NCBI GenBank assembly: GCA_042852035.1
Contig: BAAFHK010000001.1
Coordinates: 240,001 to 272,000, forward strand
Length of the DNA stretch: 32,000 nucleotides
Reading direction: 5' to 3'
From: Candidatus Saccharimonadota bacterium
GTDB taxonomy: Bacteria > Patescibacteriota > Gracilibacteria > BD1-5 > UBA2023
The notes below the pieces were generated by a model, which was not told where the DNA came from, made no database searches, and saw nothing but the letters and a program-made list of their open reading frames with translations. The first letter of the stretch is position 1; each line of letters starts with the position of its first letter. The translations under genes and the position numbers were made by a program. This document shows positions 1,692 to 25,184 of this stretch, one piece after another.

Positions 1692-2255
1692 TTAATAGTA
1701 TTTTTCACATCATAGCATAGTTGGCATTTCGCGACAATGCTCTCGCATCATCTCATCTTGAGGATCTATGCTAGTTCCGCTCGATATAGTTCCACTATTT
1801 GTATAGCCCCATTCTCTGAGCCATTTCTCCATTTGATCGATTTCATTTGCTTGTGCTGCGATGATATCAGCACCAAGTTTTTTGAGTTCGTCGTGTTTTG
1901 CTCCAGTAAGATATTTTGCCATATCGATAGCTCATTGATGATGGGGAATCATCGCAATAAGAAAGGCCTTATCAAGATCATCTCAAGTTTTTCCTTCGAG
2001 CATCTTTACCATATCATTCATTGTCATAGAGTCATGATTCATGGCTTGATTGAAATATTTATTTTCGTATTGTTTCTGGAACTCACCCCTCATTGGTCTT
2101 CCATATTTTCCTTGAGTGTTTTGAGGGTTTGGGTAATATCGACTTCCATCGATGACTCACCAAGAATAGGCACCTACAAAAAGAAGAACTACGATAAGGA
2201 TGCGTATCCATGACCAGAAGTTGATTTTTTGGAACTCTTTTTTTATATCTTCCAT
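1692..2255 (-). CDS. DUF305 family protein (ferritin-like, copper-associated), membrane-anchored
   Basis: 187 aa with an N-terminal TM (WSWIRILIVVLLFVGAY). Motifs FLIAMIPHHQGAIDMA and IIAAQANEIDQMEKWL are typical of DUF305. The standard-code stop TGA 1710-1712 is read through for 5 codons to TAA 1692-1694. Confidence 0.85.
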
Positions 2256-2342
2256 AAAATAATAGGGTTAGAAGTTACATATCCATCATACTGTGATTTG
2301 TTTTTGTGTCGAGTGAATTCAAGGAATAAATTTCTTCATATT

Positions 2343-2618
2343 TTATTTGCGAGTAGCAACATCCCAGGTTCGTAGGAGTTCGTCGATGAATGCATCTACC
2401 ACTCTTGGGTCGTCGGATGAAAGTTTTTTCTTTCCGCAACAGAGGAGATGGTCTCTCATGAGTTCGCGATTCGCGGATTTGAGGAGTCCCATTGTCGCAT
2501 TAATTTGATGTGCTACATCAGCACAGTAGACATCATTTTCTGCCATTTCGATGACCTTTTCGAGAGTCCCTCTTGCTTTCTTGAGACTTGTAATAATAGC
2601 TTTTCGTTCGTGTTGCAT
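2343..2618 (-). CDS. csoR: CsoR/RcnR-family metal-sensing transcriptional repressor
   Basis: 91 aa, intact in the ORF track. It shows the DUF156 pattern, with a C...H...C ligand arrangement (VYCADV ... DHLLCCG) as in copper-type CsoR. Confidence 0.85.
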   Translation of the reverse strand: MQHERKAIITSLKKARGTLEKVIEMAENDVYCADVAHQINATMGLLKSANRELMRDHLLCCGKKKLSSDDPRVVDAFIDELLRTWDVATRK

Positions 2619-2627
2619 AGAGAGAGT

Positions 2628-2888
2628 TTAGAGTTTTCCGAGCGCGCAGGAAACATAGCTTTTTGCTTTCTTTATAAAATTCTCTGCCTCAGGACTTCCG
2701 ACTTCGGGGTACCCTAGTGAGGAGAGAAGGGAAGTTATATCTTCTTTTTTTGGCCCCTTAGTATACTGCAAGGTTCCAGTTTTTATATCGATATGAACAT
2801 CTTCTGCTCATACCTTTTCGAGTGCTTTGGTGATGGTGTTTGCACACCCGCAACACTTGATGTTCATGATTTGTATCGTCTGTTTCAT
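2628..2888 (-). CDS. copZ: Heavy-metal-associated (HMA) domain protein, CopZ-like chaperone
   Basis: 86 aa: MKQTIQIMNIKCCGCANTITKALEKVGAEDVHIDIKTGTLQY... The metal-binding CxxC is near the N-terminus of a ferredoxin-like HMA fold. It contains one TGA=Gly and sits immediately upstream of csoR. Confidence 0.75.
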
Positions 2889-2891
2889 ATA

Positions 2892-2939
2892 CCATACCAT
2901 AGGGTATGGTTATATTATTCTGGTAAGAAAAAGAGTCAA
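2892..2939 (-). promoter_or_regulatory. Sigma70-like promoter with a candidate CsoR operator
   Basis: On the minus strand the promoter reads TTGACT (2939-2934), a 16-nt spacer, then TAATAT (2917-2912). It is followed by the inverted repeat CCATACC-N4-GGTATGG (2892-2909), directly abutting the copZ ATG. The palindrome resembles the TACC-N-GGTA type described for CsoR sites. Confidence 0.5.
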
Positions 2940-3016
2940 ATAAAAATATGATATTTCTTTGGGGCTTCTCTAGATTTATGATATTATTTCCTTATCCTTT
3001 ACTGATTGATTCAAAT

Positions 3017-3733
3017 ATGAACAAGAAGAGTTCCTCAGAGTTTTCAGAGGCTATTAACCAGATAAACAATGCTATACTATCTACCTTTAATAAGTACTGA
3101 AGAAGTTGTTCGGCATTTTATCAAATAGGAGAAAAAGGACTTCTACCTGAAAGGAGCATATTGTTTGTTGGTATGAATCCTGCCTGATCTAGGAAATGAT
3201 TTCAAAAATGGAAATGAATGAAAAAGGATGAATATTTCAAAAAAAATGCAATGGATATTTCGTCCTATGATAGGTACTATAAAATCTATTCTGATAATTT
3301 TGGTCGCTCAAAAAAAAGAGATTGGAATATTATCGATTTGTTAGCTCAGAGAAGTTCTAATCAATCAAAAATAGCGAATTCTATAGATTTAATTATCAAT
3401 AGGAAAAGAAAATATAGAGCTGAAAAATTAATCAATGCTCAATACAAAATATTTCTTAAGCTTATATGAATTCTTAAACCCAAGGTAATAGTAGTAATGA
3501 ATGCAAAGGCATCTGAATATATAAAATTTAAGCAGTTCAGAAACCAAAAGAAACGAATATGAAAGCAATGATTCTGGGAAATGAGACTTTGAAAAAAACA
3601 AAATCTCACCATACCAATCTTATTTACATGCCCATTATCAACATGACGACCCATGGATATATGAACGAGAGAACAACTAAAGTGGAATATTAAACGTATA
3701 TTGAAAGAAATGCAAAACTCTCCCAATAAATAG
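3017..3733 (+). CDS. Hypothetical protein, possibly uracil-DNA-glycosylase-superfamily-like
   Basis: A 238-aa frame with about ten TGA=Gly and stop TAG 3731-3733. The motif ILFVGMNPAGS resembles UDG/MUG motif A (GxNP), but I could not confirm a second motif. The functional call is weak. Confidence 0.6.
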
Positions 3734-3744
3734 GAGAGTTTTTT
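3714..3744. terminator. Bidirectional intrinsic terminator
   Basis: 8-bp stem aactctcc / ggagagtt with a 9-nt loop, flanked by A and T runs. It lies between convergent genes. Confidence 0.7.
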
Positions 3745-3746
3745 CA

Positions 3747-5264
3747 TTATTTCTTTTTGTTCTTTCTGAAAATTTTCGATATTTTTGACTTTATTCGTAC
3801 CCCAAAAAAAGTGAAGCCCTGAGTGAGTCGATGGATCTTCTTTTCGAAAAATCCATGACTCTTTTTTTCCTCATTTCAGGACTTATTCTTCTTTTCTGAT
3901 CATTCTTTTTTCGTTGCCTTTTCAGGGCTTCCGAGATCTTCTTTGGTCCGGATGAGGGCATATTCTGTTGGTTTTTCTGGCACAGTGATATAGACATCGA
4001 CATGCCCACCATGAGCAGATTTCACCTCTTCACCCGAGAGTGAGTAGATTTTCTCGAGAGTAAAATCGACAGATTGTGTTGGGGAAATGAGTCTGAGCTT
4101 ATCTCCGACATCGATTCGATTTTTTACGATAATTCTTGCGATTTTTTCCTCCTTTGCGAGTGATGTAAGATTCTTTGGGACTTCATTGTCGGTTTGGATG
4201 ATTCCCGCCATTTCTTCCTCATGGAGTTCTTTATTTTTTTCGAAATAGATAGCTTTTTCTCCAGGGTTTCCGACCAGAAATCCTGGAGTATATCCACGAT
4301 TGGATATAGCAAATACTTCTTTCGAAAGTTTCATCGCATCGTACTCTATATTTTTCTCTACCGCATCGAGTGCTGGTCGATATGCGCGCCCGACTCAGGC
4401 GATATAATTCACCGTCTTACTTCGACCTTCTACCTTGAAGCTTACTACTCATGCATCAGCAAGTTCCTGCATATATGATAGGAGACAGATATCTCGTGAA
4501 TTCATGATGTAGGTTCCATATTCATCTTCATCGATTGGAAGCATTTCTCCTGGGCGTTCTTTTTCTTCGAGGTAAAATTCTCCCGTGAGTTCCTCATAGT
4601 CATCAGGTCGACCTGTCGAGTCATAGAGTTCCTCGGGTGAGGCGTCTTTTTTAAATACCTTATATTCCCAGCGACAACTATGGGAACAAGTTCATTGATT
4701 CGGATCACGGTGAGAGAAATAGTTCGAGAGGAGACATCGCCCAGAATACGCCATACATATTGCTCAATGGACAAAAAATTCAAGTTCGATATCTGGAACT
4801 TGCTCGTGGATTTCTTTCACTTCTTTGAGAGAGAGTTCACGAGAGAGTATTATGCGCTTCACTCCGAGGTCTCGCCAGAATTCTACTTGTGCCCAGTTAG
4901 TGTTGTTGGCTTGCACAGAGAGATGTATTTCTGCATTTGGGAAGTTTTTTCGCACGAGGTTGATGAGTCCAGGGTCGCTCATGATATAGGCATCAGGCTT
5001 CAGTGCTTCCATCTTCTCGAAGGCTTTCATAAAGGGTCCAATCTTCATATTGTGGGCGTAGATGTTTGCGGTGAAGTAGATTTTTTTCCCACGAGCATGA
5101 CAGTATTCGACCCCTTCCGCAAGAGTTTCCCAGGTGAATTGGTTTTCTCGAGCACGGAGAGAAAACATTGGCACTCAGGCGTATACAGCATCTGCTCCAT
5201 AGGCGATGGCGTATTTGAGCTTTTCGAGGTTACCAGCGGGCATGAGGAGTTCAAGTTTTTTCAT
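3747..5264 (-). CDS. Peptidase U32 family protein (YegQ/TrhP/RlhA-like)
   Basis: It starts MKKLELLMPAGNLEKLKYAIAYGADAVYAG and contains the family signature EFFVHGAICMAYSGRCLLSNYFSHRDPNQGTCSHSCRWEY. I checked every codon from 5264 to 3747. The former stop TGA 3900-3902 is followed by a 51-codon Lys-rich in-frame tail ending at TAA 3747-3749. Confidence 0.9.
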
Positions 5265-5924: not shown

Positions 5925-6770
5925 ATGAAACGCAAATTTTCTTCATGGATTATTCTATTTATTGCTGTTGGTATTACTTTTTTTAGTATAGAAGAATTCT
6001 ATCAGACTCATGAGGAAAATACGCTTCCTTCACAAAAATTGGGAGTCTCTTCTGAATTAGTTCATCCTGAACCTCTTCCAAAAAGTGCATGACAACAAGA
6101 TTGTTCCATGAATGGAACATGGTTCCAAGAAAATGAACGTGAGGGATATCAGAGTTGACTTATTGATTGTGATCATGCTGTTTCATATAACCTACTTGAT
6201 GGAACTGTAGAGTCAATAACGGGAGCTTCAACTTTTGAAAAATGATATATTTCAGATGATAACGGGACATATTTTGCATTAAACGTAAAAAGCTGTTGAT
6301 GAGCTCCATGTGAATTTAGAAAGATATCTCCAAAAACCAGATTACAAATTATGAATAATTCATGAGTATTATTTGCGAGTGATGGAATCAATATCTTTTA
6401 TAATGGCATAATTCTGAAGTGAGCTACGAAAATATCAGATTTTATTGTGCTCAATGACACGGTTTGATGAGTGATATTTCGAAATTCTGATACGGTTTGG
6501 TTCGATGGGCAAGCTATAGAATGAGCTGATTCAAGAACATTTAAAATTATTTCAGGAAGTGAAGAGGGGAGCTCTTCGGTATTTGCATCGGATAAAAAGT
6601 ATTGCTATCATCTTTTATCGTATTGAGGTGATTCTGGCGTTATTCCAGAGTGTATTCCAGAGAATTTCCGTACCCTCTGAAAGGAATATTCCACTGATGG
6701 AAAAAGTGTATTCTTGCAAAATAGTAAAATCGAAGGGGCGAACCCACTTACTTTCAGGCTTCCACAATAA
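5925..6770 (+). CDS. DKNYY-repeat family protein, N-terminally membrane-anchored
   Basis: 281 aa with 14 in-frame TGA, all checked in frame. There is an N-terminal TM (WIILFIAVGITFF). Repeated units are of the type DKKYCYHL / GKSVFLQNSKIEGANPLTFRL / VWFDGQAIEGADSRTFKII. The stop is TAA 6768-6770. The standard-code ORF 6559-6774 is in another frame. Confidence 0.8.
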
Positions 6771-6772
6771 AT

Positions 6773-6805
6773 AAAAAATTCCCTCCAAATCGGAGGGAAT
6801 TTTTA
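6773..6805. terminator. Bidirectional intrinsic terminator
   Basis: 10-bp stem aattccctcc / ggagggaatt with a 5-nt loop, flanked by A6 and T5 runs. It lies between convergent genes and overlaps the stop of the MBL gene. Confidence 0.75.
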
Positions 6806-7501
6806 TTCGAGTCCAAGTTTTAGATTTGCTGGAAGAGCGACATCGAGGAATTTTGGTGGAGCGAGATGAAGTGCATTCATTGTTTCAGTGAATGCTTCGA
6901 GCGTGGTCTCAGTTCGAATACGAGTATTGTATTGTTTCTCTTCGCCAATTGTTGACATCATATGCCCTGCATAATCGTGTCCTGGATAGACCTTTGTATC
7001 ATCAGGGAGTGTGTACATTTTGTCTTTGATTGAGTGGTACATCTTCTCGGGAGATCCTTGTTGGAAGTCAGTACGTCCCGTCTTTCGGATGAAGAGCACA
7101 TCCCCAGAAAAAAGCATATCTCCGATAACAAATGAGGTGCATCCATCCGTATGACCTGGAGTTGAGAGGGCTTTTATTTCTATATTCCCGACCGTAAGGA
7201 CTTCTCCATCATGAAGGAGGATATCAGGTTTTGCGACTGCAGCACCTTCTCCAAGGGCAATCTTGGCTCCTGTTTTCTCCCGGAGTACCCCACTTCATGT
7301 GATGTGATCGGCGTGGATATGGGTATCGAGGATATAACTGAGAGTGAGTCCGAGTTCGGTGAGGAGCTTCATATCTCGTTCGACTTGTTCACGGACAGGA
7401 TCAATAATGACCGCTTCTTGGGTCTCGCTATCCGCGACGATGTAAGTGTAAGTCCAGGTCTTCTCATCGAAGAGTTGGCGGAAGATGATAGTGTTGTTCA
7501 T
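6803..7501 (-). CDS. MBL-fold hydrolase, ETHE1/Blh-type persulfide dioxygenase-like
   Basis: 232 aa with the motifs DTHIHADHITG, STPGHTDGC, FSGDVLFIRKTGRTDFQQGS and VYPGHDY. There is one TGA=Gly at 7295-7297. I checked every codon across the 7117-7295 gap. Confidence 0.85.
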
Positions 7502-7504
7502 AAT

Positions 7505-7532
7505 TTGACAGTTTAAATAATATTGTTATATT
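7505..7532 (+). promoter_or_regulatory. Sigma70-like promoter facing the plus strand
   Basis: TTGACA (7505-7510), a 16-nt spacer, then TATATT (7527-7532). It points into the spacer between tauE and the MBL gene, both of which are on the minus strand. Confidence 0.4.
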
Positions 7533-7539
7533 TAATTTA

Positions 7540-7715
7540 TCACATACTCGCGGAGGTTAGATGGTCGAATCGATTCTCATCTGTGCTTTCGCGGCATGGG
7601 TGCTCGAAAGAGTGGTTTTCACGGTGCCCTCGAAGATTCGATGGGCAATCGCAACGGTGTTCATGACCATCATCTGGCATGTGACGCTCTACATGAGGGG
7701 GTAACCCCTTTTTTT
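7540..7715 (+). ncRNA. Candidate ~175-nt sRNA antisense to the tauE-MBL spacer (class unknown)
   Basis: It begins just downstream of the 7505-7532 promoter. It ends in a GGGG-UAA-CCCC hairpin followed by T7 (7697-7715), which acts as a terminator only in the plus orientation. The interior is GC-enriched, with a GCUC-GAAA-GAGU hairpin and a CAUGU...ACAUG hairpin. The alternative reading is a minus-strand His/Cys-rich ORF (see noticed_but_rejected). Confidence 0.35.
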
Positions 7716-7785
7716 GTATTAATTTTTGAAGCAACTTTGCCAGAATCGAGTGGCACACCAGTGTCAGAAAGGTTTCATAGATAAA

Positions 7786-8553
7786 TTAGAAAAAAAGTTC
7801 TTTCGAAAGCATAACGACAGCTGCCGTCATCGTGAAGTAACCAAATCCCTGAGTCAGATGTTCACTCGCGAGATATTTCTGGAGAAAAAGTCCGATAGTG
7901 AGTCCACCGACAGCAATGAATACGAGCGTCGCGAGAAATGCCGTGTCAACCTCAGGAGGAATCCTTCATGCAGCTCCTATAAGCATATTGAGTGAGATAA
8001 TGCTCATGGAGGTCGCGATAGCCTTTTTCCCTTCGAGTCACTCGAAGAACATGAGTGCTGGTACGATGAGGAATCCAACTCCAGCTCAAACGAGCCCAGT
8101 GATAAATCCAACAACTCCTCCCCTGAGTCAGGTGCGTAAAATTTTTCCATGGGTTGAATACGTATTTTTCGCACTACTTAGAGATTTTTTCTTACAGATC
8201 ATCGAGCAGCCAGAGGCAAACATGATGAAGGTGAAGAGGATGAGGAGGTAGGTGGATTTTTCGAGGATCCAGAGATGTTCTGGAAGGGTCGGGAGGATAT
8301 ATCTGCGAGTCAGGACTGTGATGATGATCGAGGGGATGGCGAAATGAAATCCTGTCTTCCATGAGATACGGTTGTGTGCGAGAAATGTCCCGATGACTGA
8401 GGTTGATCCAACGATGATCATGCTATAAAACGTCGCGAGGAGAGGATCAATATGAAATCCATATACGAGCGTAGGAATCGCGAAAATCCCTCCGCCACCT
8501 CCGACGAGTCAGATAATAATCCCGACAAGGATAAAGAGAAGAAGGGAAAACAT
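7786..8553 (-). CDS. TauE/SafE (DUF81) family sulfite/anion exporter
   Basis: 255 aa, polytopic. It starts MFSLLLFILVGIIIGLVGGGGGIFAIPTLVY and has the second-half repeat GGVVGFITGLVGAGVGFLIVPALMFF. The start codon overlaps the trx stop (TAATG at 8551-8555). The stop is TAA 7786-7788. Confidence 0.9.
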
Positions 8554-8864
8554 TAGAGGTATTTTTCGATTAAGGTCTTGAGTTCATCGACATATTTCAC
8601 TCCGACGACCTTCTCGACGGGTTTCCCGTCTTGGAAGAGAATCATTGTCGGGATTGATCTGATTTGGAAGGCATTTGGCACATTGGGTTCATTATCGACA
8701 TTGTGCTTCATGACTCGCATTTTGCCGTCCATCACCTTCGCGAGTTCTTCGAGGATGGGTCCCATCATCTGACAGGGTCCGCACCATGGTGCCCAGAAAT
8801 CGACGAGGACGACACCTTTCTCGATATCACGAGCGAAATTATTATCCGTAGAAGTGTATGTCAT
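8553..8864 (-). CDS. trxA: Thioredoxin
   Basis: 103 aa from the internal ATG at 8864: MTYTSTDNNFARDIEKGVVLVDFWAPWCGPCQMMGPILEE... It has the canonical WCGPC motif. The longer upstream extension in the ORF track is hydrophobic junk that overlaps the promoter. Confidence 0.9.
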   Translation of the reverse strand: MTYTSTDNNFARDIEKGVVLVDFWAPWCGPCQMMGPILEELAKVMDGKMRVMKHNVDNEPNVPNAFQIRSIPTMILFQDGKPVEKVVGVKYVDELKTLIEKYL

Positions 8865-8890
8865 AGTATTTTTTATAGTGTTACATGAAT

Positions 8891-8944
8891 ATATTATGAA
8901 AATGTAATATAAAGTCAAAAGAAAATATTATGAAAATGTAATAT
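8891..8944 (-). promoter_or_regulatory. Two tandem copies of the palindromic operator ATATTATGAAAATGTAATAT; the proximal copy is embedded in the trx promoter
   Basis: Identical 20-mers at 8891-8910 and 8925-8944, 34 bp apart. On the minus strand the proximal copy lies inside TTGACT (8918-8913), a 16-nt spacer, then TAATAT (8896-8891), 27 nt upstream of the trx ATG. Each 20-mer is an inverted repeat, ATATTA-N8-TAATAT. Confidence 0.6.
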
Positions 8945-8961
8945 ATAGTGTTTTGAATTAT

Positions 8962-8989
8962 AAAAAAATCCACTAAGATTTGGATTTTT
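8962..8989 (-). terminator. Intrinsic terminator of the ATPase-Toprim gene
   Basis: 9-bp stem aaaaatcca / tggattttt with an 8-nt loop that overlaps the TAG stop. A T run follows on the minus strand. Confidence 0.7.
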
Positions 8990-10781
8990 CAGGAGGATTA
9001 CATATGAGTTTTATTTTGTCGAAAAGAGGACTAAAGTTTTTAAAGTATTCTATACCAAGAGTATCAATAATGATTCTACTAAAATGAGTTTTATCTCATT
9101 TAAATGTAATGATTTCTCATCATGGTGAGCATACTTTATTGTAGTGCAAATTATCAAAATCATCATTAATTCAATAAAACATCAGTTCAATAGGGAATAT
9201 TGTTTTGGATCAGAAATGTTGTCCAGAAGTCATATCAAAAAGTTGTCTGTTGATTTTTTGGGACTTATTTATTGGTAATAATAGAGCATAAAATCATGCA
9301 TCCTTTGCTTTATTTGATAAGCAAGTTTCAGGATTGGTATCGTGAGTTATGAAGTCAAGTCAGTTCCACTGATTATATCACTCTTCATCAAAATCAAATA
9401 AACCAATGACACAACTATTTTGAAAACAATTTGCTTTTTCGAGTGAGTATTTAACATCTTTTGCATTCTGTCATTTTGTTGGTTTTGGAATATAAAACGG
9501 CATCTTGACTCAAGGGTAAAGTTTACTCCAAGATTTTTCAAGTATTTCTTTATCAGTAAATCATTCAACAAATAATAATGGTTTTTCTTTATTGCTTAGT
9601 ATTTCCAATGTTTTATTATTCTCTTGTGTTAGTTCTCGTATTCTAATTTCCTGATTTCAAATTTTATCAAAAAATTCCTTATTGGCTATTCACAGTTCTT
9701 TATATTGTGTCTTTTGTACAGGAAGTATTCTTGGTTCATATCACTTTCGAAATACTTCATAGTAATTTGTTCATTCAGGGGCTAATGATATTGTAGTTGG
9801 TGAGTGAGTTACAACTATTACCATAATTCAATTATCTACAAAATATTGATTCAATACCTTGTAAAACATTTCAGTCAAAGATGGATTAAATGTCGCATCA
9901 AATTCATCTAGTAATAACAGCTTTATGTTATTTTTATCACGAGAATTGAGTGTTGAAAATATTAATGAAGTAATGACCTTTTCTCAATCAGATAAATCTG
10001 TTACTTCCATTCATTTTTTTTCATCAATAGTCCCATTGATAATTGGGTATATCCTTGGTTGTTCGATAATTCATGTAATTGATGTGTAGTTATCTTTAAA
10101 TCTATAGTCTATTTTAAGAAGTTTAAATAATTCATTAAGTTTCTTCCACGGGGGGAATCATAATTCATTTTGCAAGTCTGAGTCGCTTATAAGGACTCCT
10201 TGATCATATTTTTCCAATTTTAATTTAGTAAATTTATTTGCATATATAAGAAATGAATCTGCTACTATATTTGAAAAAATATCATCAGATTCCCAGATAA
10301 ACTCATCATCAATAGCTCATATTATCTCTTCTCTTTGGAGCAATCCTCCCATAAATCTACTCTCTCAAAATTTTTGAGTGAGTATCTCCTTTGCTTTTTT
10401 TGAAGATTTTTGGAAACTTTTTAATATCTGATGATTTTCATTAAGAAGGACTCAGTTTGTGTAGTGGCTCCAAACACTATTTTTATGATTTATGAAATTT
10501 TGTGGTTCCGCATTTCAGATATTGTTTATTTGCTGTATATTACTTTGAAGTGTTCGAAATTGTATATTTTTATAATTTATCGGTATGCCATCAATGTCTA
10601 TGCTTGTGGCAATATTTTTATTTGGGTCTTCGGGATATTGTCACTTAATTATTTGCATTAATTGTGATTTTCCACTTCCATTTACTCAAGAAATAATTAT
10701 TAAATTTCACTCTAAGCTTATCTCAAATCAACTTGGAAAGGATTTGTATTCTTCAAATAGTCTAATATTTAAAACTCCCAT
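8973..10781 (-). CDS. Fused ABC-type (AAA15/21-like) ATPase + Toprim/DUF4435-like nuclease; OLD-family or fused PARIS (AriA-AriB)-like defence candidate
   Basis: A 602-aa single frame of 1809 nt with many TGA=Gly. Motifs: Walker A IISGVNGSGKSQL, ABC signature-like LSDGEK, Walker B KLLLLDEFDATFNP, and H-loop VVTHSP. The C-terminal Toprim motifs are PLLFVEGFTDKEIL and GLFDFDEEG. It is the most AT-rich coding stretch in the window. Confidence 0.8.
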
Positions 10782-10852
10782 ATAAATCTTAATTAATATT
10801 TATACAAATTATATTTAAAGAGACTTCTCTTTCCAGCTTTTCCGATTTTAAA

Positions 10853-11479
10853 TTATTCTTTTACCTCACACACCCCACCCACACAATTCTGATTCTTGTG
10901 TTCTTTCATCCACTTCCGACGCACGAGCCAGCCATAGATCCGACAGCCGACACAGTATCAGGCGACAGATTCGAGCCACATAAAGGTGATACAGAGGATG
11001 CATGCAAAAAGGGTAGGATTCAGTGGTGTGACGATGAGTTCATGATTTCGGAGATTTTCAGCAGTTGTCATCCAGATTTTTCCAACGGTCTCGGCCTGTG
11101 GTCCAGCAGTAGGGGCCACATAGCCTCCGAGGATGAGTATGCAGTAGAGAGCAAATACTGAGAGGAAGAGTCCGATGCTCCATGCAAATCGTTTTTGTAC
11201 CGCACCAACCCAGATTTCTTTGCTCTTTTCGAGATTCATACGTACAAGAGATCCGAAGATGCTCCACTTTGGTCCGATGAATATCTTCATGATGAACTCG
11301 AGTATGACGATGCTCACGAGGACGAGGGGGATAGAGTATTCAGCCTTGAAGAGGACGAGGAAAAATGATGTCATCGTGAAGAGGAGCATGATGCCTGTTG
11401 AGATGCGGATTTCTCGTTCATCGACGAAACCATATTTATCGTGTTTTTCAGAGATGCCGTGAATGAAGTGTCAGTACAT
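10853..11479 (-). CDS. DUF4395 family membrane protein
   Basis: 208 aa: MYGHFIHGISEKHDKYGFVDEREIRISTGIMLLF..., with several TM segments. The C-terminal GYCVGCRIYGWL motif is reached only by reading TGA 10958-10960 as Gly. The stop is TAA 10853-10855. Confidence 0.8.
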
Positions 11480-11537
11480 AGAAGAAAATTAAAACACCTA
11501 TAAGTGTAGGTGTTTTTTACGCAGATTCAAGAAAGAA

Positions 11538-11921
11538 TTACTGAACTATCTTTACATTTTGTATACTATCCATACCGCCAACATCCCTTATATTCGTATA
11601 TCATGCATTTTTGAGAATGTTGTATGCAATAGCAGATCGTCGTCCACTACGACAATAGAGGTTCACAGGAGTGTTTTTCGGAATAATAGAAAAATTTCCT
11701 GCTTCAATATCTCCGAGTTTTACGTGCATGGCTCACTCGATGTGGCCAGCTGTCCATTCGCTATCTTCGCGGACATCGACATAGAGTACTGATTCCTTTC
11801 ACTGAGTCTCCGAAGAGACGGAAGCACTTGGGAGAGAGCTACTCGATCAAGCTGGGGGAGGGGAGTTGGTACAACTTGCGAGAGAAAGAAGGGCACCAAA
11901 GAGAAGAATATATTTGAGCAT
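11538..11921 (-). CDS. Rhodanese-domain lipoprotein (sulfurtransferase)
   Basis: 127 aa. The signal peptide has a lipobox (MLKYILLFGALLSLAS-C). Rhodanese motifs are VLYVDVREDSEWTAGHIEGA and the active-site loop YCRSGRRS. Confidence 0.85.
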
Positions 11922-11982
11922 AAAAAGAAATTATGGAGAGAACGGATGTTCCCGAAAACCCACCCAATTAGGGTTGGAAATA

Positions 11983-12768
11983 TTAGTGATTCATTTGTCC
12001 CATGCCATTTCCTTGTCCACCACCACGACGATTTCCTGATCCTGTAGGTCCACGACCATCACCATTTCCTCAGCCTTGGGCTCCAAAGGTTTGGAGATTA
12101 TTGGACTTGAGGAGATCAGTCATTTTGTATTTGAGGGGGCCAGTGCTGTTTAGTTCGCTGGCCGTCATATAGCGAGCATAGTCGGTCGTGACAATATAAT
12201 TATTTTCTACCGCGAGACGAAGAAATGCTCGAAGGTGATTGAAACTGCCACCACCGATATTTTCGAACACTCGGCGGACATCCGTATCTTCGACGGTTTT
12301 ATATTCAGAGAGGAGATGATCTATGTCTCCAACTTCTACCATAACTCAAGCTTCGATAGCTTCTGTGAGGCTTGTATCAATCATCTTTTTCAGGGTTTCA
12401 TAGGTACCAGAGTAGCTGCCATAGTCAGTCGGACGATCGATACTACGAGCATCGAGGAGGCGTCCAACCTGTTCTGAATGTTTTTCTTCCGAACTCACGA
12501 TATTCATCACTTCGGTGAACTCGGGATATTTTGCCACCATGAGGGTGTAGATGTCTTCTGCGAGACGTTCTTCGGAATAGGCATCCTTGAGAATGTTTTC
12601 GACTATTTTTGGATCAGTAGTTTGAGGGTCGGGGGCTTGTTTTTGATTGTTTGAAGCCACTGTTTGTGTTGGAGTTTGAGTCGAACTTGGTACTTTATTT
12701 TCTATACTAGAAAGAGTACAAGAGCTCAGAATGCAAGCAGAGAGTGGGAGAATTAAGAGGGCATTCAT
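11983..12768 (-). CDS. DUF2202 (ferritin-like) lipoprotein with a Gly-rich C-terminal tail
   Basis: 261 aa. The lipobox is LPLSA-C. Motifs are EERLAEDIYTLMVAKY, SSEEKHSEQV and the diagnostic GGGSFNHLRAFLR. Two TGA=Gly join ORFs 12346-12768 and 12070-12342 and add the tail GGNGDGRGPTGSGNRRGGGQGNGMGQMNH. Confidence 0.85.
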
Positions 12769-12786
12769 ATGAAAAATGGTTAATGT

Positions 12787-12806: not shown

Positions 12807-12847
12807 AATAACGAGTATAACATCTCAAAGTAAGAATTCGGAAAGAA

Positions 12848-13099: not shown

Positions 13100-13117
13100 A
13101 TCAGAGAGGTAAGAATA

Positions 13118-13462
13118 TTAAAAGAGACCAAAAAATCATTTTTTCTCACTTCGCACAACCTTATCTGCGAAATCATTTTCTATGGCATTCATGCCACCAG
13201 AAAGGTTGTATCCCTTGATGCCTTCACCTTCTGCAAACATTGTTGCTTGAGCAGATCTTCCGCCACTTCGGCAAATAAATACAACCTTTTTTGACTTATC
13301 GATTTCACTCATGCGAACGGGAAGGATGTGAAGGGGGATATTTTTTGCTTCTTTGAGGCGAGCTTCATCATATTCACCGGTTCCACGTACATCAATGAGT
13401 TCGATGGTCTCTGGTGCGGTTGTGAGTGATTCCATGAGTTCCTTGGCAGAGAGAGTATTCAT
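13118..13462 (-). CDS. Single-domain rhodanese (sulfurtransferase)
   Basis: 114 aa with the active-site loop FICRSGGRS. TGA 13136-13138 is read through for 5 codons (GFFGLF) to TAA 13118-13120. Confidence 0.9.
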
Positions 13463-16300: not shown

Positions 16301-16615
16301 TTATATAAAATTTTTGAGTACCATTTCTTCTGCCTGATTTCTCTCCTGGTTCATCTCCATGAGTTCACTCTGTCGTAATTCATGAATCTTATTTGCTCAT
16401 TCTGTGAGCTTCTTCTGTAAGCGCATGTCACCTGCAGATTTAATAGATTCTCGTAAGAGATTTTCGACTCCATCAATGGCTTCAAGTGTAACAAATTCAC
16501 TTCCTATAAGTGCTATTAGTCCATCGGCTAAATCCCAAGAACCTGAAAGACTTTCCAGAACTTCAAGCACCCCATTCCTCCGACGTAAATATGATTTTTT
16601 TTCTTCCTCAGTCAT
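16301..16615 (-). CDS. Hypothetical 104-aa protein
   Basis: MTEEEKKSYLRRRNGVLEVLESLSG..., continued through TGA 16397-16399 to TAA 16301-16303. It lies 15 nt upstream of the 517-aa gene and is probably co-transcribed with it. Confidence 0.6.
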
Positions 16616-16688: not shown

Positions 16689-17207
16689 CTATTTCTCTGA
16701 AATCGTATCGTGTACGATAGACCGTATTCACCAAATGAATGCAAGTATCATGAGAATTATCCCAGTCCAGTGTACAATAAGAGCTAAAGAGTGATCATAT
16801 TCAAGTATATCAAGCATTGTGAGAAGATTTCCCCAGTCATGAGCATCTTCATTCATTCCACCGATGAGGGGAAGTGAGCGCGCACTTGCATCAGAGATAT
16901 AGAGTGCTACATCGGTCATATTTTGCCCCGTCCACCAGAGAGCAAATTGTGCACCGATGATGCTTCTTTCATCTTGGAAGAGAAAAACAAATACGAGTAT
17001 AGCTGGAAGAAGACACTGAAATAAGCTCCCACCGAGTATTGTCATAAATTCTCAAAATGGCATGAAAATCACGTGGCCAGCTTCATGAAAGATAAGATTT
17101 GCTCCATGAATAAATGCATTCATAACAGATTGATTTATCCCGAAGGTAAAAAACTGTATTGAATATAGCAGAAGAAGTCCGAGAAAGATGATTCTTGCGA
17201 AAATCAT
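16689..17207 (-). CDS. Membrane protein with an HExxH zinc-protease motif (M50/site-2-protease-like, tentative)
   Basis: 172 aa: MIFARIIFLGLLLLYSIQFF ... IFHEAGHVIFMPFGEFMTILGGSLFQ ..., with 4-5 TM segments. Two TGA=Gly. The stop is TAG 16689-16691. Confidence 0.7.
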
Positions 17208-18910: not shown

Positions 18911-18985
18911 TCCTTCCCCTCTCTTTATGGGAGAGAAATTAAGGCTATGTTTCTCTAAAACTCTAATATCTTAGGAACGAAAATA

Positions 18986-19011
18986 AAATCTCCAGTTTAA
19001 TTTGGAGATTT
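18986..19011. terminator. Bidirectional intrinsic terminator
   Basis: 9-bp stem aaatctcca / tggagattt with an 8-nt loop. It lies between convergent rpmG and the 19016-19300 gene. Confidence 0.7.
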
Positions 19012-19015
19012 ATTT

Positions 19016-19300
19016 CTATATTTTTGCTTTTTCAGTAGAAAATGCTGGAAGATTCTCGAGAAACTGTTCAATTTCACTTTTTTTTGTATTCTGGAGGTCA
19101 GTATAGTATTCTTCTAGAGAAATAAGCCTCGCATCGAGAAATGCTCGCTCAGAATGAGTAAGAATGACTCGAGTGATTTCCTCGAACTGCATATTATACT
19201 GGAGAAGTTTTTTCACGAGCTTTTTGCTTACTTCTCGATCGTCCGTAGTTCCGAAGAGTTCACGAAGACGAGGTGATTCTTTACGAGTGCGAGGAGGCAT
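19016..19300 (-). CDS. Hypothetical 94-aa protein
   Basis: The first in-frame ATG (19300) gives MPPRTRKESPRLRELFGTTDDREVSKKLVKKLLQYNMQFEEITRVILTHSERAFLD... The open frame extends to 19402 but only with a TTG start. I recognise no family. Confidence 0.5.
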   Translation of the reverse strand: MPPRTRKESPRLRELFGTTDDREVSKKLVKKLLQYNMQFEEITRVILTHSERAFLDARLISLEEYYTDLQNTKKSEIEQFLENLPAFSTEKAKI

Positions 19301-19659
19301 TGGTATTTTGTATTTATTTATATTTTTATAGTAGTGAGGGAAGGGGTTCTTTCCTCGCTCGAGGCATGAATATATCCTACTCGATTTATAATTTTCTCGC
19401 AAATAGTTGCTCTTGATTTTTTTAATTTCTGTTTAAAAAAAGAAATCTTTTCACTCGAGTTCCTCAATATATTCATTTTCTTAAAGAAAAAGTTCTTTTG
19501 AGATTTTCTAAAATCTCCTATTCGGGAGATGTGCTCGGTAAAAAATAATTTCTGCTTGCTTTCTTATAATGTTTTCCTATAATCCGCTCGCATTTTTGGT
19601 CAAAGTGCTTTTTATATCCTTCTTATCGCTTGCGGTAAGATATAACCCATAGGATTCAT

Positions 19660-19944
19660 ATGAGAAAATACGAACTTATGATGATCGTAGATCCTGCTCT
19701 TACGGTAGCTGACAGAGATGCTCTTGTTACTGTAATAAAGTCAGAGCTTACAGATCACGGTGCGAAAATTGTTTCGCAAGCTCATCCAGGTGAGCAAAAG
19801 CTTGCATACCGTATTCACGGAAGTCAAGTTGGCTATTATCTATTATATACTCTTGAGAAAGAGGGAAATTTTGTTGATGCTTCAAACGCATTTAACCTTA
19901 AAAAGGATATCTGGCGTTACATGTTTACCCGTGTAGAAGAATAA
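19660..19944 (+). CDS. rpsF: 30S ribosomal protein S6
   Basis: 94 aa, intact: MRKYELMMIVDP... It is first in the canonical rpsF-ssb-rpsR order. Confidence 0.95.
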   Translation: MRKYELMMIVDPALTVADRDALVTVIKSELTDHGAKIVSQAHPGEQKLAYRIHGSQVGYYLLYTLEKEGNFVDASNAFNLKKDIWRYMFTRVEE

Positions 19945-19966
19945 TTTTTTCATCATCATTTTTACT

Positions 19967-20386
19967 ATGAGAACTATTAACAAAGTTATCCTTATTGGAA
20001 ATATTACAAAAGACCCTTTCGTAAAAACAACAAGTGCTGGTCCAGATAAAAAGATTGCTACTTTTACAGTTGCAACAAATCGCTACTATAAATCTCCAAA
20101 TGGAGAGGCTCTCTCTGAGGCTGAATACACAAATTGTGTTGCATGGGGGCCACTTGCGGATCAGGTTGAGAAATTTCTTGTCAAAGGAAAACTTGTTTAT
20201 ATTGAGGGAAGACTAAAGACGAGAATTATCGATAAAGAAGATGGCACAAAGCTTCATAAGACTGAAGTGGTTGTCGGACAACTTATCTTCCTTTCTAAAC
20301 GAGAAGACTTTGCTGACAATTGAGCTGATTCTGGTCCAGTTTCTGATGATTTTGATGACTTCTCTGATCTTGATGATAAATTCTAA
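19967..20386 (+). CDS. ssb: Single-stranded DNA-binding protein
   Basis: OB-fold N-terminus MRTINKVILIGNITKDPF. Reading TGA 20321-20323 as Gly restores the expected acidic C-terminal tail ...DDFDDFSDLDDKF before TAA 20384-20386. Confidence 0.95.
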
Positions 20387-20421
20387 AACTTTTTGATTGA
20401 TAATTTTATAACTCAAATTAT

Positions 20422-20727
20422 ATGACTACGAAAAAGAAAAAAGTCTGTCCAATCGATGCTGCTGGAATAAAGCAGATTGATTATAAGGATACAACTCTTC
20501 TTAAGCAATATCTTACCAAGTTTAATCGTATCGTTCCACGTTACTATTCTTGAGTATCTCTTGCGAACCAAAAAAAGCTTGCACAAGCTATAAAAAGAGC
20601 TCGATATATGGCACTTCTTCCATATGTGCTTGAGGTAAATCGCCCAAGCGAGATTTCTCTTCCATCCGCTTCTGTAACTCAATCACCAACTCCTGAGACT
20701 CTTGATGAGACAGCAGTAGCCGTCTAA
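20422..20727 (+). CDS. rpsR: 30S ribosomal protein S18
   Basis: 101 aa: ...IDYKDTTLLKQYLTKFNRIVPRYYSGVSLANQKKLAQAIKRARYMALLPY... There is one TGA=Gly. The stop is TAA 20725-20727. Confidence 0.95.
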
Positions 20728-20750
20728 TTACTCAGATTTCATGATATAAG

Positions 20751-20774
20751 ATTCCCATTCCAGTTGGGAATTTT
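20751..20774 (+). terminator. Intrinsic terminator after rpsR
   Basis: 7-bp stem attccca / tgggaat with a 7-nt loop, followed by TTTT. Confidence 0.65.
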
Positions 20775-20851
20775 ATAATGTCAATTTTATTTTATAGATG
20801 CGATTAGTCGGGTATAAAACACGAAGGAAACTGCTTTTTTAGAAAATTATA

Positions 20852-20880
20852 TTGACTTTCTCTCTTAGGACTGCTATCAT
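20852..20880 (+). promoter_or_regulatory. Sigma70-like promoter of the pilin-like gene
   Basis: TTGACT (20852-20857), a 17-nt spacer, then TATCAT (20875-20880). Confidence 0.45.
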
Positions 20881-20913
20881 AGAGGGGTCCATTTATTTCT
20901 TATTTTTCTTTCT

Positions 20914-21273
20914 ATGTCACTTACAAAGTCACTTTATGCGACTATTGCAACTCTTTTTGTTGCTGAGAATGCTCTTGCTGCTGGAGCAGACACAATGTTT
21001 GGTCTTACAACTAAGGCTTCTGGAACAAATATTACTGGAGCAAATGGTACAGCGTGGGATGCTATTTCTAATATTATTAAGCAACTCCTTACTCTCGTTT
21101 CGATTATTGCCGTGCTCTATGTGCTTTGGGCAGGTTTTCAGATCATGACAGCAGGTGGTGATGAGGAGAAGGTGAAGAGCGGTCGAAAGACAATTATCTA
21201 CGTTATCGTTGGTATCGTTGTTATGTGGCTTTCATTCTGGCTCGTTTCCCTTGTTATCACTTCTCTTACATAG
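20914..21273 (+). CDS. Small two-TM secreted/membrane protein, TrbC/VirB2-type pilin-like
   Basis: 119 aa, intact. It has a signal-like N-terminus (ATIATLFVAENALAAGA). The first hydrophobic helix is followed by MTAGGDEEKVKSGRKT, then a second helix. This layout matches VirB2/TrbC-type pilins as I recall them from CPR genomes. Confidence 0.65.
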   Translation: MSLTKSLYATIATLFVAENALAAGADTMFGLTTKASGTNITGANGTAWDAISNIIKQLLTLVSIIAVLYVLWAGFQIMTAGGDEEKVKSGRKTIIYVIVGIVVMWLSFWLVSLVITSLT

Positions 21274-21287
21274 TAGAAAAAAATTTG

Positions 21288-21315
21288 AAATCCCTCGAAA
21301 GAGGGATTTTTTTAT
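21288..21315 (+). terminator. Intrinsic terminator
   Basis: 9-bp stem aaatccctc / gagggattt with a GAAA loop, followed by a T run. Confidence 0.8.
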
Positions 21316-21365
21316 TGTCTTTTTCCTGATTTTTCCTATTATAGAGTGCATCTAAATGCAATACT

Positions 21366-24062
21366 ATGGCTTACGATCACTTACGGATAGAAAAAAAATG
21401 GCAGAAATTTTGGGAAGAAAATACCACTTTTTCGACTCCTACTATTTCTGAAAAGCCAAAAAAATATATTCTCGATATGTTTCCATATCCATCGGGGGCT
21501 GGGCTTCACGTTGGTCATCCGAAATGATATACTGCAACAGATATTGTATCTCGTTACTATCATGCAAAGTGATATAACGTTCTTCATACCATGGGTTGGG
21601 ATGCTTTTGGATTGCCCGCTGAAAACTACGCCATAAAGACGGGTACACATCCTGCTATTACTACAGCACAAAATGTCACCACTTTTCGCTCCCAGATGAA
21701 GTCTCTCGGATTCTCATATGATTGGAGTCGTGAAATAGATACAACCGATCCAGAATATTATAAATGGACTCAATGGATTTTTCTTGAACTCTTCAAGCGA
21801 TGACTTGCTTACGAACAAGATCTTCCTATTAACTATTGTCCAAGTTGTAAAACTTGACTGGCAAATGAAGAGGTTCTCGCTGATAATACCTGTGATAGAT
21901 GTGGGACTCGCGTAGAACGTCGCCCAATACGACAATGGGTACTCAAAATCACTGAGTATGCAGATAGGCTTATAGAAGATCTCGAGAGTCTTGATTGGCC
22001 AGAAGGAATCAAAGAAATGCAGAGAAATTGGATAGGGAAAAGTGAGGGATGTGAGTTTGAGATGAAAAAATCTGACGATCAAACAAAAAGTATTCGCGTC
22101 TATACAACCCGTGTAGATACAGTCTTTGGGATGACGTATGCTGTACTTGCTCCAGATCATCCAAGAGTTAGAGAATTTATTACTGAAGAACAGAGACAAA
22201 TTTGTGAAAAATATATTGAATGAGTTAAGTGAAAATCTGATCTTGATCGAACAAATGAAGGTAAAAGTAAAACGGGGGTATTTACCGGATCTTATGTGAT
22301 AAATCCTTATAATGGTGAATCAGTTCCCCTTTGGATTGCTGATTTTGTTCTTGGTCATTATTGAACGGGTGCTCTTATGGCAGTTCCTGCTCACGATGAA
22401 CGAGATAGGGAATTTGCTCATTTATATTGACTTCCTATTGTTCAAAGCGTTCAAACTTCAGTTCCATTTGATGGTTGATCCTGGAAAAAGGAATATGGAG
22501 AAGATGGTATAAGCTTGGCTCTTAATCTTCCCTCAAGCGAGTCTCGAAAAGCTCTTACTGAAAAAGCAGAAAAAGAAGGCTTCTGAGAAAAAAAAGTCAA
22601 TTATAAACTTCGTGACTGGCTCTTTTCTCGTCAGAGATATTGGGGTGAGCCAATACCACTCATCCATATTGCATGAGATGATTTTGATGCACTTCCTCGT
22701 ATTGCTGACATTTCAGAGGCAAAAGACATGAATATTGCTTATATTCTTGATAAGCGAGGGACAGATAAGCGGTGTAAAAATTGTACTTGTGGTGATGTTG
22801 GTTGTGTAAAGCTTATTATCGGTGGAAAATCCTACTCAAGAGTTTATGACGGAATCTACTCAAAGATTCTTATCGATCCAAATCTTCCTGTTACGCTTCC
22901 AGAAGTTGAAAAATATGAGCCAGCAGGAGATGGTCAATCACCGCTTGCGAATGTTCCGGATTGGGTAAATATTAAACTTGCTGATAATCTCAGTGGAAAA
23001 AGAGAAACCAATACGATGCCACAGTGGTGAGGAAGTTGTTGGTACTACCTGCGATATATGGATCCGAGAAATAAAGAGGTTCTCGCAAATAAAGAGGCTC
23101 TTGATTATTGGGGAATTGTAGACGAGTATGTGGGTGGCGCTGAACATGCTGTTCTTCATCTTCTTTATGCTCGTTTCTGGCATAAGGTTCTCTTCGATGC
23201 TTGAGTTGTTCCGAAAAATGAACCATTCCAAAAGCTTACAAATGTCTGAATGATTCTTGCCTATGCTTATGAGCGAGAAGATGGAGGCCTCGTAGCGGTT
23301 GATCTTGTTATAGAGAAAGATGGAAAATTCTATGAAAAAGAAACACAAAAAGAGGTGAAGCAAGTGGTGGCAAAGATGAGTAAATCTCTCAAAAATGTAG
23401 TCAACCCAAATGATATCGTCAATGAATATGGAGCTGATACCCTTAGACTCTATGAGATGAGTATGGCTTGATTTACCGATACGGCTCCATGGAATCCTGA
23501 GGCGATTATCTGAGTTCGAAGATTTCTTGATCGAGTTTATGCGAGTTTCACAGAGTGAAAGAATCAGGCTCGTGATGATATGAAAGCGATGAAACTCCTT
23601 CATAAAACGGTGAAGAAGGTAGGAGAAGATATTGAGGGATATAAATTCAATACTGCAATTTCAGCACTCATGATCCTCCTCAATGAATGAATCCCTTCCG
23701 ATCTCGATTTTCGAAAGGAGTGGAGAGAAAAATTTCTCATACTTCTTCATCCATTTGCACCACATATTGCTGAAGAGCTTTGGATGTTTGATCATATGGG
23801 AGAGCGACCGATTTCTATTTCCACCTTTGCATGGCCAAATTTTGATGAATTTATGCTTGTGGATGATGAAGTGACTATTGCGGTTCAGGTGAATGGAAAA
23901 CTTCGAGGCACTCTTACTTGTTTTAATGGAGTAGCACAAGAAGAAGTCTCGGCACTCGCTCATGCAGATGAAAGTATAGCAAAGTGGCTTCTTGGAAAGA
24001 TTCTCGTCAAAGAAATTTTTATTCCAAATAAAATGCTCTCAATCGTTGTACGAGACGAGTAG
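21366..24062 (+). CDS. leuS: Leucine--tRNA ligase
   Basis: 898 aa in one frame (2697 nt) with many TGA=Gly. It has the HVGH (HIGH) motif, [10 protein letters not shown] (KMSKS), and the conserved blocks [17 protein letters not shown] and [11 protein letters not shown]. The stop is TAG 24060-24062. Confidence 0.97.
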
Positions 24063-24075
24063 GATGATTATCTTT

Positions 24076-24103
24076 TTGACAATTTATGTAAAAAGAATAG
24101 GAT
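24076..24103 (+). promoter_or_regulatory. Sigma70-like promoter of the RNA candidate
   Basis: TTGACA (24076-24081), a 16-nt spacer, then TAGGAT (24098-24103), directly after the leuS stop. Confidence 0.4.
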
Positions 24104-24109
24104 TCCCAA

Positions 24110-24436
24110 ATCCACGCAGTGCTCTGCTGTCGTGGATGAGGAGCTGAACCCTACCGTTCAGAGAAAAAGAGGTGTTTCTTGGCTACTACCGATACCCCCG
24201 ATACCCGAAAGGGTACTACCGCAACTCAACCTCAGCGTCGGCGTGTCCCCAAAGGTCATGCCGCACTCCAGCACGACCTGAATCCTTGTTCACGTCGTGA
24301 CTCGGACCAAACCCCGATCTTCTGGGTTCAGGCATTCCATCATCCGGGTGCATTACGGAGGGATTGATTCGCTACGGCGAGCATCGGCTTTCTCGGAAGC
24401 TTACCTTCATTCTTTTGGCCGCCTTCGGGCGGCTTT
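24110..24436 (+). ncRNA. Candidate ~330-nt structured ncRNA, class not assigned
   Basis: A GC-enriched, ORF-poor segment bracketed by a promoter and terminators. The hairpins I could draw are:
- 24111-24136 (tccacg/cgtgga)
- 24144-24161 (ctgaac/gttcag)
- 24202-24215 with a GAAA tetraloop
- 24272-24299 (cacgac..tgaa/ttca..gtcgtg)
- 24310-24328 (aaccc/gggtt)
- 24418-24433 (gccgcc-UUCG-ggcggc), followed by UUU. Confidence 0.5.
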
Positions 24437-24447
24437 AACATTTAAAC

Positions 24448-24476
24448 AAAAAAACCTTCAGTAGAGAAGGTTTTTT
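24448..24476 (+). terminator. Intrinsic terminator (second of a tandem pair)
   Basis: A7, then the stem aaccttc / gaaggtt with a 6-nt loop, then T6. Confidence 0.75.
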
Positions 24477-24600
24477 GATTACTTTATAAATTACTATTAT
24501 AAATTCGTTTTGAAGTGTCAACTTCCTCTTATAGTAAAGATATTACGATGACACCTTATATAGTTTCATGAACGCCAAGAGAAAAAATGGAGAAAAAGTT

Positions 24601-24628
24601 TTGACAAATGTTTCTAAATACATACATT
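24601..24628 (+). promoter_or_regulatory. Candidate promoter upstream of the high-GC ORF
   Basis: TTGACA (24601-24606), a 16-nt spacer, then TACATT (24623-24628). It lies in AT-rich sequence just outside the compositional boundary. Confidence 0.35.
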
Positions 24629-24734
24629 AAGAAAATCCAGTTTGATTCAGCTCAGGCTGATCCAACTGGTGTCACCGCTCGTAGGGTGAGAAACCCCGAG
24701 TATCAACTGTCCCAATGGTCAAGAGGAGAACCCA

Positions 24735-25184
24735 ATGACCCGTACCCGAATGAACCTGGCGGCTCTGGCCGCACTCGCATCCTGCGCCGGCAACGCGACC
24801 GCCCACGTGCGTACCAAGTTCGACGTCGACACCGATCCCAAGAAGGGCATCTGCGCCATCAGCGATGGCACCGACGGCGCGATCGGCGGCGGCACCGGCG
24901 TGGTCAGCACCGAAGGCGGCGAGAACAGCAATGGCACCGGCGTGGTGAACCAGGCTGGCACCGACGGCAGCGCGATCGACGGCAACCAGCAGCAGATGCA
25001 GCAGGCCGGCGCCGCGAGCACCCAGGAAGGCGATGGCCGCACGTACGACGCCAGCGCGCAGCAGCAGGCCGATGTGAGCCGCGAAGGCGATGGCAACCAG
25101 CAGCAGGCCGAGATCCCGGTGGACCGTTCCGACACCCAGCAGGGCTGATGTCGAGGTGAAGGCAGGAGTGTGGTGGAAAGATAA
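24735..25184 (+). CDS. Compositionally foreign lipoprotein, low-complexity G/T/D/Q-rich (standard-code end 25148; code 25 end 25184)
   Basis: GAGGAG lies 6 nt upstream of the ATG. The signal peptide plus lipobox is MTRTRMNLAALAALAS-C. Third codon positions are almost all G/C. Internal repeats are GTGVV x2, EGDG x2 and NQQQ x2. There is no internal TGA. The terminal TGA 25146-25148 would be read as Gly here, adding GCRGEGRSVVER before TAA 25182-25184. The overlapping ORFs in other frames and strands look like typical high-GC shadows. Confidence 0.6.

Follow-up and report, generated by a model that had tools for sequence, protein, structure and literature searches.

Reading of UGA as glycine (genetic code 25) is an established property of Gracilibacteria and Absconditabacteria, where predictions from genomes have been backed by proteomic validation (Hanke et al., 2014, as cited in PMC6851277), and prfB, the gene for release factor 2, has been reported missing in Gracilibacteria (PMC6851277). 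In code-11-compatible phages that are targeted by these bacteria, TGA stops are backed by nearby alternative stops (Liu et al., PMC10746230). With a TAA or TAG close behind a TGA that is read through, the protein therefore gains only a short tail. Here we analyze six TGA codons near the 3′ ends of genes in a 32,000-nucleotide stretch of DNA (the window) from contig BAAFHK010000001.1 (positions 240,001 to 272,000; assembly GCA_042852035.1). Five are in the genes for a DUF305 protein, a U32 peptidase-like protein, a single-domain rhodanese, a membrane protein with an HExxH motif and a 104-amino acid protein, while the sixth ends a lipoprotein-like open reading frame (ORF) in a high-GC island. 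An earlier note on this DNA had explained them as ancestral or imported stops converted to sense by the code change, with the recognizable domain of each protein ending at the TGA. All six are located where that note had placed them and on the genes it had named, as confirmed by checking of the coordinates, and its interpretation does not hold for the five native genes. We consider instead, with a probability of about 0.85, that the five are ordinary sense codons and that the high-GC ORF, whose TGA stop would now be read through, was probably imported from an organism with the standard code, so that the "imported TGA stop" half of the earlier proposal is retained for this one ORF, and as an import.

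The window is part of a genome of Gracilibacteria/"Candidatus Altimarinota" and uses code 25 (TGA = Gly), because its ORFs collapse under code 11, with which stop-to-stop ORFs of at least 100 amino acids cover just 24.6 of the 32 kb, and because conserved genes hold many in-frame TGAs. When TGA is taken as sense the window resolves into 35 closely packed genes, in which TGA accounts for 193 of 8,970 codons (2.15%) and for 28% of the glycine codons, ranking second after GGA. The gene for LeuRS contains 18 in-frame TGAs, that for IspG 10 and that for a 602-amino acid protein 28. TGA specifies Gly and not Trp, as it aligns with conserved glycines of standard-code homologues. For example, codon 52 of the HExxH protein corresponds to Gly in 19 of 20 aligned homologues, including all 14 from standard-code organisms, and the twentieth, from a code-25 relative, has TGA. 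No tRNA or tmRNA gene was found in the window by ARAGORN.

As TGA is the second most used glycine codon here, the five native TGAs would be expected to fall near 3′ ends by chance. This was evaluated by placing TGAs uniformly along the 35 genes and also by shuffling them among the Gly codons of each gene. With uniform placement, the number of genes with a TGA within 5 codons of the stop is 3 observed versus 3.3 expected (P = 0.66), within 12 codons 6 versus 6.7 (P = 0.70), within 31 codons 16 versus 13.6 (P = 0.23) and within 51 codons 20 versus 18.4 (P = 0.32), and shuffling within Gly codons gave a similar outcome. At a TGA frequency of 2.15%, about one gene in four is expected to carry a TGA among its last 12 codons, and TGAs do not accumulate at the 3′ end when their relative positions within genes are considered. 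Hence near-terminal TGAs in the window are not enriched over chance. The earlier list of them was also incomplete, as it omitted an SPFH gene with two TGAs (28116 and 28134), which are 3 and 9 codons away from its end, and an NfeD gene with a TGA at 28540, 11 codons from its end and within the Pfam NfeD domain. Since TGA is among the commonest Gly codons, its presence near the end of a gene says nothing of history unless relatives are compared.

Such comparisons were made with syntenic loci of code-25 relatives (L003-L012 and L039) and, for the HExxH protein, with standard-code homologues (L013-L038), and they involve 2-14 relatives per gene, save for the HExxH and U32 proteins, for which about 30 proteins were aligned. 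They show that the residues past the TGA in the five native genes are parts of C-terminal segments conserved among relatives and not accidental read-through, these being GCEKY in DUF305, FGLF in the rhodanese, a basic motif in U32 and the tails of the 104-amino acid family and of the HExxH protein. The lengths given previously for the extensions were correct for DUF305 (+5), the rhodanese (+5), the HExxH protein (+12) and the 104-amino acid protein (+31), with U32 corrected from +51 to +50 and the high-GC ORF from +12 to +11. Their description as low-complexity applies to the U32 linker and not to the remaining five, and the domains do not end at the TGAs. Peptidase_U32_C ends at residue 439, with the TGA at codon 455, the Rhodanese domain ends at residue 96, with the TGA at codon 109, and in DUF305 standard-code homologues align to approximately residue 150, with the TGA at codon 182. 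In the HExxH, 104-amino acid and high-GC proteins no Pfam domain is recognized.

In the gene for the HExxH membrane protein (16689..17207, minus strand), the TGA (16728-16730, codon 160) encodes the mostly conserved Gly of a "WG" motif that lies in the final hydrophobic segment, which is probably membrane-spanning. In 20 aligned homologues this column contains G in 12, A in five, C in one and TGA in two, making that of the window the third. Sequence continuing past the TGA in standard-code homologues is what the earlier note had said would refute its interpretation, and the 14 such homologues (from Cellvibrio, Nitrospiraceae, Gallionella and others) all have Gly, Ala or Cys in the column and all run on for 9-30 residues beyond it. 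The protein itself has no Pfam family, and its homologues, at 33-48% identity, are found also in Sideroxydans, Longimicrobiales and Acidobacteria. It represents a widespread uncharacterized family. In Longimicrobiales the homologue lies near a gene for an MBL-rhodanese fusion.

The 104-amino acid protein (16301..16615, minus strand) belongs to a family of about 105 residues and its TGA (16397-16399) lies in a conserved C-terminal segment. Using the TGA-free N-terminal 72 residues as the query, 14 full-length representatives (103-106 residues) were obtained that align without gaps through the tail. The TGA column contains G, W (TGA under code 4), A, S and one V, and is thus mostly a small residue (G/A/S), and the orthologue in L009, with 50% identity over its full length, has a TGA at the same site. 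The presence of W for G in several members points to code-4 calls of code-25 genomes, and two truncated entries stop at or beside the TGA column, as code-11 gene calls would. No standard-code member was clearly seen among the family representatives.

In the DUF305 gene (1692..2255, minus strand) the TGA (1710-1712) is the Gly of the C-terminal motif HCREMPxMxGCEKY. The protein ends in HCREMPTMLgCEKYY, where g is the TGA, and its relatives in L003 and L039 end in HCREMPDMIGCEKYR and HCREMPEMMGCEKYQ, with the Gly encoded by GGA and GGC, respectively. Because these relatives use GGA and GGC in the same motif, the TGA is a synonymous Gly codon within a conserved C-terminal motif that contains Cys, His and Met. 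The alignment with standard-code proteins, which are encoded on plasmids, extends to about residue 150 only, and the more distant DUF305 paralogues of L006 and L009 have Met-rich tails instead. The single-domain rhodanese (13118..13462, minus strand) likewise has a conserved C-terminus, FGLF, after its TGA (13136-13138). The window protein ends in RSEKKgFFGLF and those of L005, L006 and L009 all end in HGEKKKLFGLF, where the position of the TGA is Lys (AAA in L005), and the rhodanese orthologues hold internal TGAs of their own. Rhodaneses in the PDB, which align to residue 94, lack the FGLF tail, and so do the C-terminal domains of the Longimicrobiales MBL-rhodanese fusions, which extend 7-16 residues past GGFDAW, compared with 19 past GGMNAI in the window protein. 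Given that this gene has a single TGA, its import together with a TGA stop was considered as a separate case, and it is ruled out by the internal TGAs of the orthologues, the Lys at the site and the common FGLF end.

The U32 gene (3747..5264, minus strand; termed YegQ-like after the YegQ/TrhP-type name in the NCBI annotation) encodes a protein that is 100% identical to a 505-amino acid protein of an NCBI "Candidatus Altimarinota bacterium" metagenome-assembled genome (MAG). Its 50-residue tail consists of a variable Lys-rich linker, which contains both TGAs (3900-3902 and 3876-3878), and a conserved distal basic motif (3750..3851; consensus FFEKKxHxxxQSxxFFGVRxKSKxxRxFxKKKK), which is predicted to be probably helical. 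In P0002 and P0003, the closest relatives, the position of TGA-455 is occupied by Ser. The distal motif was found in 14 relatives with 76-90% identity, and in a fifteenth protein with a tail, P0013, the end is divergent. Code-25 U32 proteins at a greater distance have no tail and end 3-10 residues past a conserved YAIIRK. In a tree of the core alone, the proteins with tails form one clade within the code-25 U32 proteins, and tail-less forms of 448-474 residues are nested at three places inside it; that of L039 ends at a TAA, with no tail remnant downstream. The tail was therefore gained once inside the code-25 clade after the reassignment, is not a by-product of the code change, and has since been lost at least three times. 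The possibility that the 456-residue forms represent the ancestral state was also considered and is ruled out, as they are nested three times within the tail-bearing clade. A search of the PDB with the C-terminal region gave no meaningful match. Like those of DUF305 and the rhodanese, the U32 tail is a lineage-specific addition.

That all six TGAs were ancestral or imported stops made sense by the code change, leaving accidental and unselected extensions, is consequently very improbable. Such an origin would fit the absence of the DUF305, rhodanese and U32 tails from standard-code homologues, which also counts against the reading that we favor, as does the small number of relatives (2-14 per gene) from which conservation of the tails other than those of HExxH and U32 was judged. 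It would also fit one group of U32 relatives that ends at a TAA, just one codon past the TGA position in the window. However, in all three of these proteins homology to standard-code proteins ends 9-30 residues before the TGA and not at it, and the HExxH homologues read straight through the position. Moreover, the TGA sites are occupied in code-25 relatives by GGA, GGC, Lys codons, Ser, Ala or Val, and these relatives keep the residues that follow. The U32 tail originated inside the code-25 clade, with the tail-less forms being derived, and near-terminal TGAs are no more frequent than expected. Short lineage-specific tails can resemble read-through products and yet be conserved.

The sixth TGA (25146-25148) is found within a 573-bp island (24638..25210) that the composition profile shows to have about 68% GC in a window of 38.5% GC. 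It ends an ORF of 137 codons (24735..25148, plus strand) that has a GC content of 0.68 and a GC content at third codon positions (GC3) of 0.83-0.88, compared with GC3 values of 0.21-0.55 in the other 34 genes. Up to the TGA, the GC contents of the three codon positions are 0.68/0.53/0.88, which is the classic order for the coding sequence of a high-GC organism. Over the TGA and the 11 codons of the extension GC3 is 0.33, and the coding periodicity ends at the TGA. None of the 23 internal Gly codons of the ORF is TGA, compared with 28% in the host (P = 0.004 for at most 1 of 24). A Shine-Dalgarno sequence, GAGGAG, is located 6 nucleotides upstream of the ATG at 24735, and the N-terminus of the product, MTRTRMNLAALAALASC, has an Arg-rich n-region, a hydrophobic core and a lipobox, LASC. 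A GC-rich, terminator-like hairpin that lacks a U tract (25161..25205) follows just past the TGA, and the 86-nucleotide stretch that includes it (25140-25225) folds at −26.7 kcal/mol (z = −2.2 versus shuffles). In the host AT-rich DNA just upstream of the island there is a sigma-70-like promoter match, TTGACA-16-TACATT (24601..24628), which is a consensus match only. The island is flanked by two copies of an imperfect 21-nucleotide direct repeat (24617..24637 and 25211..25231) that match at 17 of 21 bases, a value reached about 0.3% of the time in shuffles and in control pairs of windows from the real sequence (P about 0.003). At the corresponding LeuRS-CofD locus of the syntenic relatives L006 and L010 the island is missing, the spacers of 650-830 bp having no GC-rich DNA and no similarity to it.

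From the foreign composition, the coding periodicity and the absence from relatives we infer that the island is probably a recent horizontal import from a standard-code, high-GC organism. Because the GC3 periodicity ends at TGA 25146-25148 and no internal Gly codon is TGA, this TGA was probably the native stop of the donor ORF. In a high-GC, standard-code donor the ORF would end there. In the present host, the ribosome would insert Gly at the TGA and add the 11 residues CRGEGRSVVER (25149..25184), and translation would stop at the TAA at 25182, which is located in the loop of what would be the donor's downstream hairpin. That the ORF is translated at all is likewise something that we infer. 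A more specific scenario, in which the island is a very recent and unameliorated capture made by a code-25 episymbiont, whose high-GC host or prey was perhaps the donor, with a host-like promoter and expression of a lipoprotein bearing the 11-residue tail, is tentative and on balance doubtful.

Several observations weigh against an import. No homologue of the high-GC ORF was found among 5.8 billion proteins, and it has no PHROG match. A donor was likewise not found, with no blastn match to the island in plasmids or phages, no exact match to the product and no match to the degenerate codon pattern of the ORF when this was scanned over JGI metagenomes. NCBI apparently has no protein call at the island even though neighboring proteins of the same MAG are in the database. 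In addition, DNA of 68% GC yields long ORFs easily, all six frames of the island being nearly open, and the flanking repeat is imperfect, which fits poorly with a very recent target-site duplication. Some of these observations would also be expected if the island were an assembly chimera or a contaminant in the MAG contig and not part of the organism's genome. Its source is a metagenome-assembled genome, its composition is wholly unameliorated, no homologue of it turned up in any search, and public collections apparently lack a gene call for it. We regard this as unlikely, however, since the island is only 573 bp and host sequence resumes on both sides in the gene order of the relatives, LeuRS ... 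CofD, so that a chimera would need two joins returning to the same locus, and since it is flanked by the 17/21 direct repeat. Less likely still is that the segment is real but non-coding or repetitive DNA in any organism, where the TGA would be meaningless as a stop. Its internally repetitive, low-complexity sequence, the ORFs open in nearly all frames and the absence of homologues are in line with this, but it does not account for a strong three-base periodicity in the order typical of high-GC coding sequence that ends at the TGA, or for GAGGAG placed 6 nucleotides before an ATG that is followed by an Arg-rich n-region, a hydrophobic core and a lipobox. Import from a standard-code organism remains the reading we prefer. 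If the island is real and expressed, it would mean that entry into a genome in which TGA is Gly is possible for a standard-code gene that lacks internal TGAs, at the cost of just a short C-terminal tail, and a gene would survive crossing this "genetic-code firewall" because only its stop codon is TGA. It would then bear on the extent to which a changed code isolates these bacteria from gene flow, and could hint at the identity of the organism on which they live.

The spacer between the LeuRS and CofD genes seems to be a variable locus. A known RNA in the GC-rich DNA at 24100-25200 was considered and rejected, as Rfam gave nothing over the whole window at gathering thresholds and, over 23900-25400 at E values up to 1, just terminator-like noise. 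A second GC-rich block (24100-24430), of 55-60% GC, immediately follows the LeuRS stop, with a GC hairpin at approximately 24414-24430 and a bidirectional terminator at 24449-24476 after it. This block shows no codon periodicity and has stops in all six frames, and on either strand its folding is better than that of shuffles (z about −3.2). It matched no Rfam family even at E values up to 1, an exact 23-mer taken from it had no match in JGI metagenomes, and it is missing from the relatives L006 and L010. It is a candidate for either an unknown structured RNA or a decayed foreign fragment. Adjoining the island is an orphan ORF of 246 codons (25359-26099, minus strand) in which 13 of the 19 Gly codons are TGA and which is clearly adapted to code 25. 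Its sole database match is itself (NCBI HHAS10_02820), and it has no Pfam or PHROG match. L006 has at this position an unrelated, TGA-rich ORF of 241 codons.

Usage of TGA among the genes of the window is uneven, as exemplified by those at 8973-10781, 2948-3733, 6803-7501 and 11983-12768. TGA makes up 72% of the Gly codons in the AT-rich gene for the 602-amino acid protein (8973-10781, GC 0.28) and 67-68% in two further orphans. In the genes for the MBL-fold protein, thioredoxin, glutaredoxin, the CsoR-like protein and orf262b the share is 0-8% and GC3 is higher. These differences may reflect different origins or ages of the genes, or an effect of expression level. Gene calls in public data are inconsistent for this organism. 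Two Logan contigs (L001 and L002, from DRR350542) are identical to positions 6732-9042 and 18926-22499 of the window, and the public gene calls on the latter were evidently made with code 11, SSB being cut to 118 residues at a TGA and LeuRS being fragmented. Many database relatives show W at TGA positions, from code-4 calls. As public calls made under code 11 or code 4 give truncated proteins (SSB of 118 residues) or mistranslated ones (W for G), length-based comparisons in databases are unreliable for the code-25 clade.

The regions at 1692-2900 and 6803-13767 form a probable metal and sulfur stress gene neighborhood that is largely kept, with rearrangements, in L006 and L009. The first contains the genes for DUF305, a CsoR-like repressor and an HMA copper chaperone, and the second those for an MBL-fold protein, a TauE exporter, thioredoxin, DUF4395, two rhodaneses, glutaredoxin and ArsR, where the labels CsoR-like, HMA, glutaredoxin, ArsR and DUF4395 were assigned by eye or taken from the earlier note, not by a tool. 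Downstream of the S6-SSB-S18 genes is a gene for a 119-amino acid protein (20914-21273) that lacks TGA codons and is kept in L006, L009 and L010. Its precomputed Pfam matches are T4SS_pilin (PF18895) and, faintly, TrbC.

In its genetic code the window does not differ from what is known of Gracilibacteria and Absconditabacteria, with in-frame TGAs throughout conserved genes, and under this code the five native cases amount to ordinary coding sequence. The U32 protein resembles other conserved enzymes with lineage-specific C-terminal tails, in that a catalytic core and Peptidase_U32_C are followed by a clade-specific basic tail (14 relatives), and it differs from them in the repeated changes between presence and absence of the tail within the clade. 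The high-GC island can be compared with two known systems. Like horizontally acquired genomic islets, it has atypical GC3, is absent from syntenic relatives and is flanked by direct repeats, but it has no integrase, tRNA target or mobility gene, and the recipient uses another genetic code. Like the code-11-compatible phages, the island would be standard-code DNA in a code-25 cell, with a TGA-terminated gene read to a nearby stop and given a tail of 11 residues. Unlike them, it is a 573-bp chromosomal segment with one orphan lipoprotein-like ORF and no phage genes or PHROG matches, and its backup TAA is in a hairpin loop and shows no sign of selection as a backup stop. By analogy with these phages, the high-GC ORF is best regarded as a new instance of a principle already described and not as a new principle.

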